Origin: an uncultured Gammaproteobacteria bacterium | GTDB taxonomy: Bacteria; Patescibacteriota; Microgenomatia; JALYQM01 | Assembly (NCBI GenBank): GCA_964403585.1 | Contig: CAYOFQ010000001.1 | Coordinates: 896,680 to 960,679 of the forward strand | Length of the DNA stretch: 64,000 nucleotides | Direction of reading: 5' to 3' | Shown here: positions 13,892-46,477 of the stretch, piece after piece | Numbering within the stretch: the stretch's first letter is position 1 | Layout of the letters: each line of letters begins with the position of its first letter | Translations under genes and position numbers: made by a program | Notes under the pieces: generated by a model | Databases searched by the model: none | Told to the model about the DNA's origin: nothing | What the model saw: only the letters and a program-made list of their open reading frames with translations

Positions 13892-14737
13892 ATGATTGTT
13901 TCAGGCAAACCGATAGCGCAAAAAATTCTCGAAGACGTTCGTCAGCAAATCGAAACCAACCATCTCCATCCGGACCTGGCCATTATTCTGGCCGGCGAGA
14001 ATCCGGCCTCCCGGATGTATATCAAACATAAAACCAAAGTCGGAGCAGAGATTGGCATCAATGTCATAACCTACGAGTTTGCAGCGTCCGTTCCCGATGA
14101 ATGCATGCGAACAATCGATGCGTTAAACAACGACCCGCAAACCAACGGTATTATTGTCCAATTGCCACTTTACCCGAATTGGGTAACAGATAATTTCGTC
14201 AACCGTGTAGCGCCACAAAAAGATGTCGATGGCTTTGTTCCGAGGACTCCGTTCATCCCGGCTACAGCAGAAGCAACCTGGGAAATGCTGAGCGAATTTG
14301 CCCGCCTTGAGGGCTACCCGATCACCGAAAGTTTTCTTCAAGGCAAAAAAATTGTCGTGCTGGGCAAAGGGAAAACTGCCGGCAAACCGGTACGGGAACT
14401 ACTCAAAACCAAAGGCTTTGATTCAGCATTAATCGACTCAAAAACAAAACACCCCGATGATATTATCAGAGAATCAGACATTATCGTTTCCGCCACCGGC
14501 AAGAAAAATATTATCAACGCCACTAACGTCAAAGACAGTTCCTATGTTATCGGCATCGGTGTTGGCAAAGAAATTGTCGGCGATACCACAAAAACTTTTG
14601 GCGACATTGATGAGGAGGGTATCGAAAACAGAGCAAAACTCATCTGCCCGACAATCGGCGGTATTGGTCCGTTAACCATTGCCTGTCTATTAAGAAACGT
14701 CTCCACAGCTACGCTAAAACAGGCTAGTGAACAATAA
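13892..14737 (+). CDS. folD: bifunctional methylenetetrahydrofolate dehydrogenase/cyclohydrolase
   Basis: 281 aa; MIVSGKPIAQKILEDVRQQIE start, Rossmann GKGKTAGKP, typical FolD length. Confidence 0.9.
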   Translation: MIVSGKPIAQKILEDVRQQIETNHLHPDLAIILAGENPASRMYIKHKTKVGAEIGINVITYEFAASVPDECMRTIDALNNDPQTNGIIVQLPLYPNWVTDNFVNRVAPQKDVDGFVPRTPFIPATAEATWEMLSEFARLEGYPITESFLQGKKIVVLGKGKTAGKPVRELLKTKGFDSALIDSKTKHPDDIIRESDIIVSATGKKNIINATNVKDSSYVIGIGVGKEIVGDTTKTFGDIDEEGIENRAKLICPTIGGIGPLTIACLLRNVSTATLKQASEQ

Positions 14738-41878: not shown

Positions 41879-42268
41879 ATGTCCCGTCAGTCAGCCAAAT
41901 ATATAGTTATTACTCTGTTACGCTGGTCAATTATTCTCCCGACAGCTATTACCGTCTCGGTTACATTCTTATATTGGCTTATTTATCAGCCAACAGGGTG
42001 GGGAGTCCTAACAATCTTCCTGATAGCATACTACACAGTGCTATTAAGCGGTATCATCTGTAATGCCGTTGTTTTACGACATATTTACAACCACCTTCAG
42101 AGCAAATACCCCCAACTCGTCTATAATGCCGGAAAATACTATTTTATCCTGCTTTTTGGATATTTCTGCCTCATACCGCTACTCGGATTCGGAGTACTTG
42201 CGTTATTTACCATAGCTAACCCTATAATTATTATACTTTCCATTATTCTGGCAGAATTCGTCCATTAG
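41879..42268 (+). CDS. hypothetical 4-TM membrane protein (tandem paralog A)
   Basis: 129 aa; shares TM topology and spaced motifs with the next gene. Confidence 0.45.
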   Translation: MSRQSAKYIVITLLRWSIILPTAITVSVTFLYWLIYQPTGWGVLTIFLIAYYTVLLSGIICNAVVLRHIYNHLQSKYPQLVYNAGKYYFILLFGYFCLIPLLGFGVLALFTIANPIIIILSIILAEFVH

Positions 42269-42275
42269 GAGCTCT

Positions 42276-42692
42276 ATGAACAAAAAGGATTGGGACAACC
42301 AAATTTTAAAAGTACTAGTCAAATGGTGCTTCTTCTACCCGCTGGGAGCAGCTGTTACTGTCGCGGCGCTCCTGACGCTGGCCGGCGGACATTTCGACGG
42401 GTGGGCGCTGGTGGGGGCAATTTTCATCGGTTATTACGCATTATTGGTACTGGGAACCGTCGGCAACCTCAACGCGGTAGGCAAAACTTACACCATTCTC
42501 GAACAACAGGAGCCCAAAATCCTTAATAAAGTTGTCCTGTACTATTGCCTGATCATGGGTACCTATTTGTGCTTACTTCCATTCATGATCAGCATTTGGT
42601 TCCTCGGGTTTCTGATTATTAACCCCGGAACTATCCTGTTATCCATCACCATAGCTACGCTCATTGAACCTAAAAAGAAAAACGGACGGTAA
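42276..42692 (+). CDS. hypothetical 4-TM membrane protein (tandem paralog B)
   Basis: 138 aa; paralog of 41879-42268; N-terminal half (42300-42530) is conspicuously GC-rich. Confidence 0.45.
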   Translation: MNKKDWDNQILKVLVKWCFFYPLGAAVTVAALLTLAGGHFDGWALVGAIFIGYYALLVLGTVGNLNAVGKTYTILEQQEPKILNKVVLYYCLIMGTYLCLLPFMISIWFLGFLIINPGTILLSITIATLIEPKKKNGR

Positions 42693-43609: not shown

Positions 43610-43840
43610 ATGGCAATGCAAAGAAAAACATATTTCAAAAAGAGAACATGCCAATTCACGGAAGAGGGTGTTACTCCGGATTACAAAGATATCAACCGCT
43701 TAAAGAAACTCGTTTCCGACCGCGGGAAGATCCTTCCTAAGGCTCGCACCGGTACTTCCAGCAAGTACCAGCGACAGGTAGCGATCGCCGTCAAACGCGC
43801 TCGTCACCTGGCACTCCTCCCATTCGTGGCACGAGGATAA
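43610..43840 (+). CDS. rpsR: 30S ribosomal protein S18
   Basis: 76 aa; CQFTEEGV...YKDINRLKKLVSDRGKILPKARTG...QRQVAIAVKRARHLALLPF. Confidence 0.9.
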   Translation: MAMQRKTYFKKRTCQFTEEGVTPDYKDINRLKKLVSDRGKILPKARTGTSSKYQRQVAIAVKRARHLALLPFVARG

Positions 43841-43864
43841 GCCCTACGTAAACAAAAAACAGAA

Positions 43865-43891
43865 AGCTCCGGACCACCCGGAGCTTTTTTG
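43865..43891 (+). terminator. rho-independent terminator after rpsR
   Basis: AGCTCCGG-ACCAC-CCGGAGCT stem-loop followed by TTTTTTG. Confidence 0.65.
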
Positions 43892-44752
43892 TACTAGAAA
43901 TAAAAATGACCTATAGTATTGGAATTTAGGTTAGAAAATGATAACTATGCTGGCTTTTATAGGTATTCCCTTAATTGAAAGGGAGAGCACTTATTATGGC
44001 CGGGTTCAAAAAAGAGCTCGAAATGTTCATTAACAACGAGTAAGCAAACACGTAATATCTCCCTCGCAGTACTATTTTCAAGTAGAGGAGCTTAAATCTA
44101 TGAACTTTCGTAGTTTTAAATTCGTCTATTTGAAAAACAAGTTATAGAACAGAAGGGAGCTCAATGTGAGGACGCTAATCCTAGGCCAACCAGCGTTCGT
44201 AGACGGAGTTCTTAGTGGCAAACTAACCCCAGATAAGCTAAATAACTCGATCATGTATTTTCGGTTGGACGTACCACGCAGGAATGACTCGGGTACTAGC
44301 AGCAGGGATCGACGGTTCATGGTGGATCATGATCAACCAACTACATAGTGCTACTATCGAAGGACGAATCCGCTGGCGAGCTGAACATGAAATGGCATGC
44401 TTCGATCACCTGGTCGGGCTACTGCAAACCCATGGCTACACGCTAGTCATTCCTCCCGACATTTCCTACTACACTCACCGAACTGCCGCTCAACTCGTTC
44501 GCGAGCAGCTTGGCAACCACTTCGAGGTTGTTGTCATTGAGTAGCTCACCCTACGGAACTACACACCGAGTACGCAAGAGAGAGCAGGAGATATTACGTA
44601 AAAAACGTGAATACCTTAAGGCTGTTGAAGCTTTAATGTGTTTATTATTTTTTGTAATAGTTCCTTACCTGTCTTGCTTACTCGTTGTGTAGTTAATTTC
44701 AGTAAATCACCCCCAACTTGACGCTACCCTCCAAACCTTCTAATCTATACCT

Positions 44753-45427
44753 ATGTGGACCTCACAAGAAATCGCCGCGGTTTCGCCTATCGCTATTCAA
44801 AAACGCCTGCCTTTCGCGATCAGTCTGAACGAAATCAGTAATTACATCGGTAATTACTCATTAACCCCCAGTGGCGTACCGACAACCGCCCGCAGCAAAT
44901 ACATCTTACAAGCCATAGTCAAAGAAATATTAACCGCACAACAAAAAATTGAAACCAAAGAAACCTGTATTATTCCTGAAGAAATTTGTACCGTATCCGC
45001 CTCTGACGATGAATGCTGCAGTATCTGCATCGACAGCATGCAACTCCCGGATATCTGCAACATTAAGAAAACCAAAGACGGCGAAATTTTAGCCACGCTC
45101 TTGCAAATCCATCCCGAAAACGGGGCTGCCCGAGGACTCTGTATTATCGATTTCGAATTAACCGAAAAACAGGTCATTCACTTATCCGCACAGCAACTCA
45201 TCAAAATTCCAACACCACCACAAACCCAATTACATATTTCCCTGGCGCTAACCAAAGGCACCACGTCAATCATGCAGAACAAATCCTTCCCGATACCACG
45301 CAGCAAACTTGGATTAATTATTGATACCCGGGAAAATGATGTCCTGGTCAGATCATCAACCGAGGCATCCAAAAAATTATCTGCAGCCTGGCTGGAAAGT
45401 TTCGACCTGATATACAACGAAGGATAA
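44753..45427 (+). CDS. hypothetical protein (Cys-rich central segment)
   Basis: 224 aa; no recognisable family; CIIPEEICTVSASDDECCSICIDSMQLPDICN cluster. Confidence 0.4.
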   Translation: MWTSQEIAAVSPIAIQKRLPFAISLNEISNYIGNYSLTPSGVPTTARSKYILQAIVKEILTAQQKIETKETCIIPEEICTVSASDDECCSICIDSMQLPDICNIKKTKDGEILATLLQIHPENGAARGLCIIDFELTEKQVIHLSAQQLIKIPTPPQTQLHISLALTKGTTSIMQNKSFPIPRSKLGLIIDTRENDVLVRSSTEASKKLSAAWLESFDLIYNEG

Positions 45428-45430
45428 ACA

Positions 45431-46477
45431 ATGAAACCCTTGTACCGGATACAAAAAGTAAATAAAAAAATAATCTCCCGCAAACTCCCCGGCCGGGGAA
45501 AAATCTTCGTTGAAGTAGGAGAGCAGGTCACACCTGCAGATTTGCTCGGAGAATATAAACAGGCCGCCGGATTTCATATTGTTAACACCGCGTTGCAGCT
45601 TGGAGTTGCACCCAATAAAGCCGCCAACTATATTATCCGCAAAGTAGGGGAACACATTTTCAAAGGTGAAATTCTGGCCGAACGCAAACAAATGTTCAAA
45701 AAGGAATCCGACCGAGTATATGCTTCAATCGACGGAACCATCGACAATATCAACGAAAAGACCGGACAAATAATGTTTAAGATAACCAAGAAGGCGGAAG
45801 GGATTCCTGCCGGCGTGTGGGGAAAAGTTGTCAATATTTCCGACAGTGCTTCCGTGGATATCGAAACTCAGGTGGTACAAATACAAGGGAAACTCGGTCG
45901 TGGATTCGAACGCGAAGGAAGTATCAAAATAATTGCCAGCAAACACGAAGTGATCAAAGAACATATGATCAAAGAAGAACACGCAGGGAAAATACTCATT
46001 GGCGGAAGCATGTTGCCGAAAACAGCCATCGCCCGTGCCATCAATCTTGGCGTTATGGGAATTATAACCGGCGGCATTGATTACCAGGACCTCATTGCCA
46101 TCGGCGAGCAAAGTGATATCGGTATCACCATCATCGCGCTGGAGGGATACGGAACCATTTCAATCAATAGCGACCTGTATGATCAATTGATGAAGTACGA
46201 AAATTACTACAGTTTCATCAATGGCCAGGATCATACGCTGGTTATTCCACTCGATAAAACTGATGAAAAAGAAATTAAAAAGGAAGAAGACAAAAATATT
46301 ACCGTTGATACCAAAGTTCGTATCGTTTTTGATCAGGATATCGGACAAATCGGCAGCGTTACGCAGCTGATCGAAAACTACACCTTCCGTTCAGGAATTA
46401 CAGCACCGGCATTGAAGATTGCCTATAATAATAACGAATACGTTATTCCGCAAAGCAATGTTGAGATCCTGGAATAA
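45431..46477 (+). CDS. hypothetical protein
   Basis: 348 aa. N-terminal barrel-sandwich/hybrid-like segment (GKIFVEVGEQVTPADLLGEY...KGEILAERKQ) and a Gly-rich core LIGGSMLPKTAIARAINLGVMGIITGG; 4 nt after the previous gene, likely co-translated. Confidence 0.4.
   Translation: MKPLYRIQKVNKKIISRKLPGRGKIFVEVGEQVTPADLLGEYKQAAGFHIVNTALQLGVAPNKAANYIIRKVGEHIFKGEILAERKQMFKKESDRVYASIDGTIDNINEKTGQIMFKITKKAEGIPAGVWGKVVNISDSASVDIETQVVQIQGKLGRGFEREGSIKIIASKHEVIKEHMIKEEHAGKILIGGSMLPKTAIARAINLGVMGIITGGIDYQDLIAIGEQSDIGITIIALEGYGTISINSDLYDQLMKYENYYSFINGQDHTLVIPLDKTDEKEIKKEEDKNITVDTKVRIVFDQDIGQIGSVTQLIENYTFRSGITAPALKIAYNNNEYVIPQSNVEILE

Follow-up and report, generated by a model that had tools for sequence, protein, structure and literature searches.

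A lineage-specific tract with inverted ends between the rpsR terminator and the next promoter in an uncultured Patescibacteriota genome

The 64,000-nucleotide stretch analysed here (the window; positions 896,680 to 960,679 of contig CAYOFQ010000001.1, assembly GCA_964403585.1) comes from an uncultured bacterium placed by GTDB in the Patescibacteriota and carries, in this order, ychF, two small unknown genes, rpsF, ssb and rpsR. The rpsR gene for ribosomal protein S18 (43610–43840, taken from the list of open reading frames (ORFs), with Pfam Ribosomal_S18 found on the identical product) is followed by an intrinsic terminator at 43859–43893, consisting of the hairpin AAAGCTCCGG / CCGGAGCTTT plus a T-run, which was found by a terminator scan and has a fold z of -6.3; this terminator and all of the features described below are given on the plus strand. 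Between the terminator and the next gene, which encodes a protein of 224 amino acids (aa) and starts at 44753, lie 860 bp without a long ORF, and the question raised by the locus is what this DNA is and how it came to stand there. A preliminary description had taken the tract to be noncoding and inserted after the rpsR terminator, and had proposed a structured non-coding RNA (ncRNA), a leader with regulatory upstream ORFs (uORFs) or a decayed gene. The reading that we favour, with intermediate confidence, is a lineage-specific insertion into the space flanked by the rpsR terminator and the next gene's promoter, either a relic or a minimal form of a cassette resembling an insertion sequence (IS). 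We regard the feature as real and as ordinary in type, an unclassified insertion of the IS-like or ORFan sort.

A segment absent from related loci

Relatives of the locus were found by exact-protein look-ups together with a species-representative scan, giving 11 loci that reach this position, in seven groups. The rpsF-ssb-rpsR block is kept in all 11, and the following genes for 224-aa and 348-aa proteins are kept in six of the seven groups. In the window, 912 bp separate rpsR from the gene that follows, against 64–245 bp in the relatives: 204–205 bp in L002–L004, whose S18 protein is identical and whose DNA is about 86% identical; 106 bp in L006 and 245 bp in L007, where the 224-aa protein is about 75% identical; 64 bp in L008 and L009 and 177 bp in L010–L012, with about 49% identity in that protein in both cases; and 183 bp in L014, where the spacer leads directly to ctpA without the two unknown genes. 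When the window was aligned with the relatives, only two parts of the spacer could be matched, the rpsR terminator and the 224-aa gene's promoter. The extra DNA was also compared with all related loci, with the upstream genes and with the remaining part of the window, and in no case was the similarity significant. Since the relatives have short spacers and no sequence similar to the extra DNA, the tract is best described as a lineage-specific insertion, and the earlier placing of an insertion after the rpsR terminator is borne out by the 64–245 bp that the relatives hold at the same position. The tract is not an assembly artefact of one record, as two Logan contigs from SRR16481187 match the window at 100% identity.

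The flanking signals are intact on both sides. The rpsR terminator is ancestral, being homologous to the terminators of L003, L006 and L007 and aligning with them. The promoter of the 224-aa gene (44718–44755) consists of TTGACG (44718–44723), 17 nt, TAATCT (44741–44746), 6 nt and the ATG (44753), and is kept in L002–L004, L006 and L007; it is a predicted leaderless-type arrangement outside the insertion, with the TAATCT box at a position before the ATG that is typical for genes of this genome. In-silico removal of 44020–44700 leaves 231 nt comprising the terminator, a hairpin (H1, 43950–44003) and the promoter, and this remnant has the layout and size seen in L002–L004 and L007 (spacers of 204–245 nt). 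The relatives, which keep terminator and promoter around a short spacer, thus present the empty site expected for an IS or a miniature inverted-repeat transposable element (MITE). The AT-rich spacer that includes H1 (43894–44019) has no sequence similarity to the spacers of the relatives and probably belongs to the intergenic region as it was before the insertion.

Hairpins were also seen at this position in some of the relatives. L002–L004 (for example, L003 at 555–647) and L007 (3808–3945) carry a 95–140-nt hairpin between the rpsR terminator and the next promoter, unrelated in sequence to that of the window and equivalent in position to H1, and in L006 the promoter comes directly after the terminator with no hairpin between. 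Either palindromic elements have a hot spot in the terminator-promoter spacer, or what is maintained is the hairpin shape as such. Homology of the relatives' hairpins to the tract's hairpin H3 (below) was considered and rejected, the similarity being not significant.

Inverted ends, hairpins and reading frames

The right inverted end of the tract is hairpin H3 (44557–44694), 138 nt long with 47-nt arms of 79% complementarity and a z of -9.6, and the right terminal repeat lies at about 44665–44700. The left inverted end (the ‘A-region’, 44020–44075) has a robust core at 44033–44062. Alignment of 44020–44085 with the reverse complement of H3 was colinear, with two internal gaps, and scored 65.8, about 7 standard deviations above the null (35.1 ± 4.4, maximum 52.9 in 500 shuffles); this identifies the left segment as a copy of H3 that is inverted and has lost internal parts. 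Perfect inverted matches of 15/15 (44033–44047 with 44674–44688) and 13/13 (44050–44062 with 44587–44599), 2 nt apart on the left side, were found between the two ends, and an extended inverted match covers 24 nt at 92%. Terminal inverted repeats of the type known from IS and MITEs are thus present at about 44020–44033 and 44688–44700. A sigma-70-like promoter match (TTAACA-17-TAATAT, 44030–44058, matching the consensus at 9/12) lies in the left end and reads into the cassette.

Two further hairpins lie on the left side of the tract. H1 (z -3.8) has as its tip the small hairpin CCCTTAATTGAAAGGG (43968–43983) that had been recorded in the preliminary description, and H2 (44075–44136, z -6.4) is a 62-nt near-palindrome with 30-nt arms of 80% complementarity; H2 and H3, as well as the perfect 15-nt and 13-nt long-range inverted repeats, had been overlooked. 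The inverted ends and hairpins are statistically real. Folding of the whole tract gave z values of -6.1 and -4.9 on the two strands, strongly negative on both because the inverted repeats are present at the DNA level, and stable folding is confined to these flanking repeats: the GC-rich core (44150–44550) folds no more stably than its dinucleotide shuffles (z +0.13 on the plus strand and -0.20 on the minus strand).

In the loop and descending arm of H3 (44620–44660), we observed GAAGCTTTAATGTGTTTAT...TTTTTTGTAATAG, which resembles the terminator flank of the relatives (ATAAACAATTAAAGCTCC, reverse complement), and the same segment repeats TTTTTTGTAMTAG from the end of the window's own rpsR terminator. 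The overall similarity between the H3 segment and the rpsR terminator module was not significant (P = 0.14), and the tract as a decayed duplicate of this module was rejected on that value; a decayed duplicate of rpsR, ssb or rpsF was likewise rejected, the local alignments scoring below the null. The independent Logan assembly of SRR16481187 breaks in the right arm of H2, where one contig (L001) ends at window position 44135 and the other (L005) starts at 44114, with a 22-nt overlap; the palindrome, coverage or a variant are candidate causes of the break.

The noncoding-tract features on which the preliminary description was based are all in the sequence, apart from one Shine-Dalgarno (SD) spacing. 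Mini-ORF 1 (MAGFKKELEMFINNE, 15 codons, 43996–44043) is preceded by the SD GGGAGAG (43981–43987) at 8 nt from the ATG, instead of the 6 nt reported; this SD is paired inside H1 in the predicted fold, and the ORF crosses the proposed left insertion junction and has its stop codon inside the left inverted repeat, which argues against its reading as a regulatory uORF. Mini-ORF 2 (MNFRSFKFVYLKNKL, 15 codons, 44100–44147), inside H2, has the SD GAGGAGC (44085–44091), also at 8 nt; H2 pairs this SD-like sequence and carries the start of the mini-ORF in its loop. The codon scores of both mini-ORFs are non-coding-like. A start-stop, ATG-TGA at 44164–44169, follows GGGAG at 44155–44159 (the feature as a whole spanning 44155–44169), and the same GGGAG sits 6 nt ahead of the GTG start of a 60-aa ORF. 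Combinations of a strong SD with ATG were enriched in a post hoc test, run after the sites had been spotted (4 matches at 3 distinct sites, 0.2 expected from dinucleotide shuffles, P = 0.002). The SD-preceded mini-ORFs may best be understood as by-products of purine-rich hairpin arms and of the insertion junction, and not as regulatory uORFs.

The core (44160–44545) has a GC content of 50.8% against 33.6% and 39.1% in its flanks, in agreement with the preliminary description; it falls within the top 5% of 386-nt windows (window mean 44.2% ± 3.9), yet is similar to rpsR (49.8%). Its two ORFs were confirmed to lie in different frames. The 60-aa ORF (44166–44348, with a GTG start and a good SD) has a codon score of -0.21 in a codon usage model trained on 46 genes of the window, and 60% of spurious ORFs score at least as high. 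The 86-aa orphan ORF (44284–44544), which lies in this core of 51% GC, appears as a protein in the public NCBI and Logan gene sets; its codon score, close to that of rpsR, lies in the top 5% of spurious stop-free ORFs and in the bottom 3% of real-gene segments, and its GC by codon position (0.64/0.40/0.53) has the same ordering as in real genes (0.52/0.38/0.45). The ATG at 44284 has neither a usable SD (AGGA abuts the start) nor a -10 box 5–9 nt upstream. The earlier statement that the tract holds ‘no convincing’ coding sequence was therefore too strong, the gene being called in both sets and its codon statistics intermediate.

Searches with the 86-aa ORF returned self-matches only, both in a word-indexed search of 5.8 billion proteins and in phmmer against 1.84 billion cluster representatives, and the word-indexed protein search (5.8 billion) gave no homologues for a 60+86-aa fusion. 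There was no credible family match for the ORFs in Pfam, NCBIfam, PHROGs, PADLOC, PDB sequences or tblastn against plasmids; a six-frame Pfam scan of the tract was empty, and an ORF-based scan of viral contigs gave no match. A programmed frameshift between the two ORFs was considered and rejected, with no slippery motif seen by eye and an offset of +1, not -1. Of the options first proposed, a decayed gene comes nearest to these results. No frameshift-corrected ORF with homologues was found.

A single-sequence AlphaFold model of the 86-aa ORF, of low confidence (predicted local distance difference test (pLDDT) 49.7), showed a coherent β-β-β-α-β-α-β domain; the one control was not coherent. The best PDB matches of the model in Foldseek were YqgF and RuvC, and an Asp in the first strand (GID, residues 8–10) and another after the fourth strand (PPD, residues 56–58) were identified by eye from the sequence and the secondary structure of the model. 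Sequence comparison with RuvX was negative: under a RuvX hidden Markov model (HMM) built from 4 PDB sequences the ORF ranked below most of its own shuffles, hhalign gave a probability of 0.04, and RuvX had no match at E ≤ 10 in the Pfam scan of the ORF. We take the RNase H-like fold as a lead only, and the ORF may be truncated. A RuvX ‘DERLST’ match seen by eye was backed by neither the RuvX profile nor hhalign, and by-eye matches to the IS110 DEDD domain and the IS200 ‘IPP..S’ motif were set aside, with no IS110, IS200 or RuvX model appearing in the Pfam and NCBIfam scans.

Weighing the explanations

Under the favoured reading, the inserted unit would span about 44020/44033 to 44688/44700 (0.66–0.68 kb) and would have arrived by transposition or another illegitimate insertion, with inverted ends, a promoter-like site in the left end, the SD-pairing H2, a coding-like core of 51% GC and the closing H3. 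The 86-aa ORF would be what remains of a nuclease or transposase-type protein with an RNase H fold, or a minimal version of one. The hairpins may have formed the ends of the element and damped its expression, in the manner of the left-end hairpins of IS200, and the element would now be neutral in place, because neither gene is cut off from its own signals. No effect of the tract is evident, either on the ribosomal-protein operon beside it or on the gene downstream.

Several results weigh against this reading. The outer 13 nt of the left end (44020–44032) match only weakly, and the boundaries are therefore approximate. Inspection of the boundary pairs 44020/44700 and 44033/44688 revealed no target-site duplication, which some IS families do not make. 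A second copy was looked for without success in the 64 kb of the window, out of a genome of about 1.57 Mb, in some 80 kb from the relatives and in metagenome and viral end-motif scans (0 matches), leaving the mobility of the unit unproven. No transposase or other family was matched in any of the six frames in Pfam, or by the ORFs tested against NCBIfam, PHROGs, PADLOC and PDB sequences. Finally, the RNase H-like fold depends on a model of low confidence (pLDDT 49.7) and one control, with negative sequence tests. The DNA of the tract also gave no match in phage or plasmid collections. If the RNase H-like fold is true, the ORF would be a small, highly diverged nuclease or transposase relic invisible to sequence searches, and a candidate for minimal mobile elements in a poorly sampled lineage of small genomes (about 1.57 Mb). 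We give very little credence to two bolder proposals, that the 0.66–0.68-kb unit is an intact ultra-compact mobile element, smaller than IS200, with an 86-aa minimal RNase H-fold nuclease or transposase that acts on the long palindromic ends, or that a perfect 28-bp long-range helix competing with H3 is an RNA or DNA switch by which the unit is controlled.

The same parts could be assembled into a functional orphan-gene cassette similar to a phage ‘moron’, horizontally acquired and still expressed, in which the promoter at 44030–44058 would be the cassette's own, H2 a hairpin of the 5′ untranslated region (5′UTR), the 86-aa product possibly an RNase H-like nuclease, and H3 a stabiliser or terminator. 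We consider this rather unlikely. Its appeal lies in the promoter-like site at 44030–44058, in the calling of the 86-aa ORF in public gene sets, in a codon score within the range of small real genes such as rpsR, in a fold model that is coherent where the control is not, and in the atypical GC of the core (top 5% of windows). The ATG at 44284, however, has neither of the start types of this genome (an SD, or a -10 box 5–9 nt upstream), the protein has no homologue among the 1.84 billion cluster representatives, the ORF stops short of the C-terminal catalytic part that RuvX-type proteins require, and H3 lacks a terminal T-run.

A second account, to which we assign a similarly low probability, dispenses with element identity and function altogether: the spacer would be a hot spot of hairpin-driven rearrangement (template switching, inverted duplication and slipped deletions) that captured random or foreign DNA, leaving non-mobile local junk. 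Spacer length and sequence differ in every relative, with unrelated long hairpins in two groups; L014 lacks even the next two genes; the left end resembles H3 minus its 74-nt tip, a classic slippage product; no target-site duplication was seen; and neither the window nor the metagenome and viral scans yielded a second copy. This would nevertheless leave unexplained the origin of 380 bp at 51% GC with gene-like codon-position GC and a long ORF, for which no donor sequence was found in the window or the relatives.

The first proposals of the preliminary description, a structured ncRNA of a new kind or a cis-regulatory leader containing uORFs, now appear very improbable. They would accommodate the strong hairpins, the possible 28-bp long-range helix (44033–44062 with 44587–44599 and 44674–44688) competing with H3, and the enrichment of SD-ATG combinations (P = 0.002). 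Against them, there is no Rfam family match, the core is unstructured, its folding being at shuffle level, the inverted repeats fold equally on both strands, as expected for DNA-level repeats, the tract is absent from every relative, and mini-ORF 1 spans the insertion junction to end inside the inverted repeat. The Rfam scan that had been recommended gave, at E ≤ 10 over 43700–44900, only matches far below threshold, the best (29 bits, cutoff 211 bits) being a plant miRNA precursor model that simply fits the long hairpin H3; at gathering scores, Rfam reported two tRNAs in the window, both elsewhere, and ARAGORN found no tmRNA. Because the tract stands after a terminator and before a conserved promoter adjacent to the start, it is not the leader of the 224-aa gene, whose own promoter abuts the ATG in the same geometry in relatives without the tract. 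The locus is in this respect a cautionary case, in which hairpins, SD-led mini-ORFs and a GC-rich core mimic a riboregulator and a few relatives reveal an insertion in one lineage.

A pseudogene fragment of a known housekeeping family, either the N-terminus of HisRS/HisZ or ruvX, is also highly unlikely, since the motif-1-like matches of the 86-aa ORF that suggest it (Pfam tRNA-synt_His, residues 32–65, E 0.003, 17.3 bits against a gathering score of 25 bits; NCBIfam HisZ, E 0.07, 12.1 bits against a cutoff of 318) are below cutoff, the HisRS match covering a generic helix-strand unit only and leaving the first 30 residues unexplained, the RuvX HMM and hhalign are both negative, and phmmer against the 1.84 billion representatives and the six-frame Pfam scan provided no relative.

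Flanking genes and likeness to known systems

Boxes of the TAnnnT type were surveyed at the gene starts of the window. A -10-like TAnnnT box ending 5–9 nt before the start codon was present for 17 of 50 window genes compared with 8.5% at random positions (examples are the starts at 13892, 27768, 33101, 40782, 41879, 44753 and 59584), and about one third of the window genes have an SD instead, which points to frequent use of leaderless mRNAs by this organism. The two genes after rpsR (224 and 348 aa, 44753–46477) are without family assignment, form only seven 90%-identity clusters among 5.8 billion proteins and are kept with rpsR...ctpA-rplI in most relatives; in L014 (6390–6573) they are missing and the S41 peptidase gene comes directly after rpsR. 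The family of these neighbouring genes had no match in JGI metagenome contigs. Upstream, between ychF and rpsF, two adjacent small hydrophobic ORFs (129 and 138 aa, 41879–42692) have no Pfam match, and the identical Logan contig has gene calls for both; in relatives, the same slot holds a short-chain dehydrogenase in L008, a 145-aa ORF and a second S41 peptidase in L010, and about 500 bp with no called gene in L014.

Four kinds of known system offer points of comparison. Leader attenuators of the erm/cat type have, like the tract, short SD-led ORFs overlapping SD-pairing hairpins; unlike them, the tract lies outside the 5′UTR of any conserved gene and is missing in the relatives, and one of its mini-ORFs is a junction artefact. 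With the RuvX/YqgF, RuvC and DDE/DEDD transposase cores, the 86-aa ORF shares a predicted topology and the putative Asp positions, whereas it has no detectable sequence similarity to them and ends before their C-terminal catalytic region.

MITEs and palindromic intergenic repeats, such as the Correia, RUP and ERIC-type elements, are closer in form. H3, an imperfect palindrome of 138 nt, stands beside a terminator in an intergenic spacer, a partial second copy of it lies 0.5 kb away, and two groups of relatives carry other long hairpins at the site. A MITE family is defined by its many copies and, as a rule, by a target-site duplication; for the tract unit neither was seen, and the unit differs further in carrying a 380-bp coding-like cargo.

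The tract was not assignable to IS200/IS605 or to any other IS family, and its resemblance to IS200 is architectural only. No signature of the Y1 HuH transposase (TnpA) was detected in any frame, and the predicted fold of the 86-aa ORF is RNase H-like where that of the IS200 transposase is HuH; IS200 has no terminal inverted repeats, in contrast to the inverted ends of about 24–28 nt here, and the tract unit is known as a single copy. IS200, the smallest autonomous insertion sequence, is 707 bp long and has a left-end terminator hairpin, a 5′UTR stem-loop that sequesters the SD and one ORF (PMC4513863). The unit described here is of the same size class at 0.66–0.68 kb, and the two are further alike in having a single small coding region and left-end inverted repeats or hairpins, one of which pairs an SD, in showing no target-site duplication, and in being silent intergenic passengers (PMC4513863).

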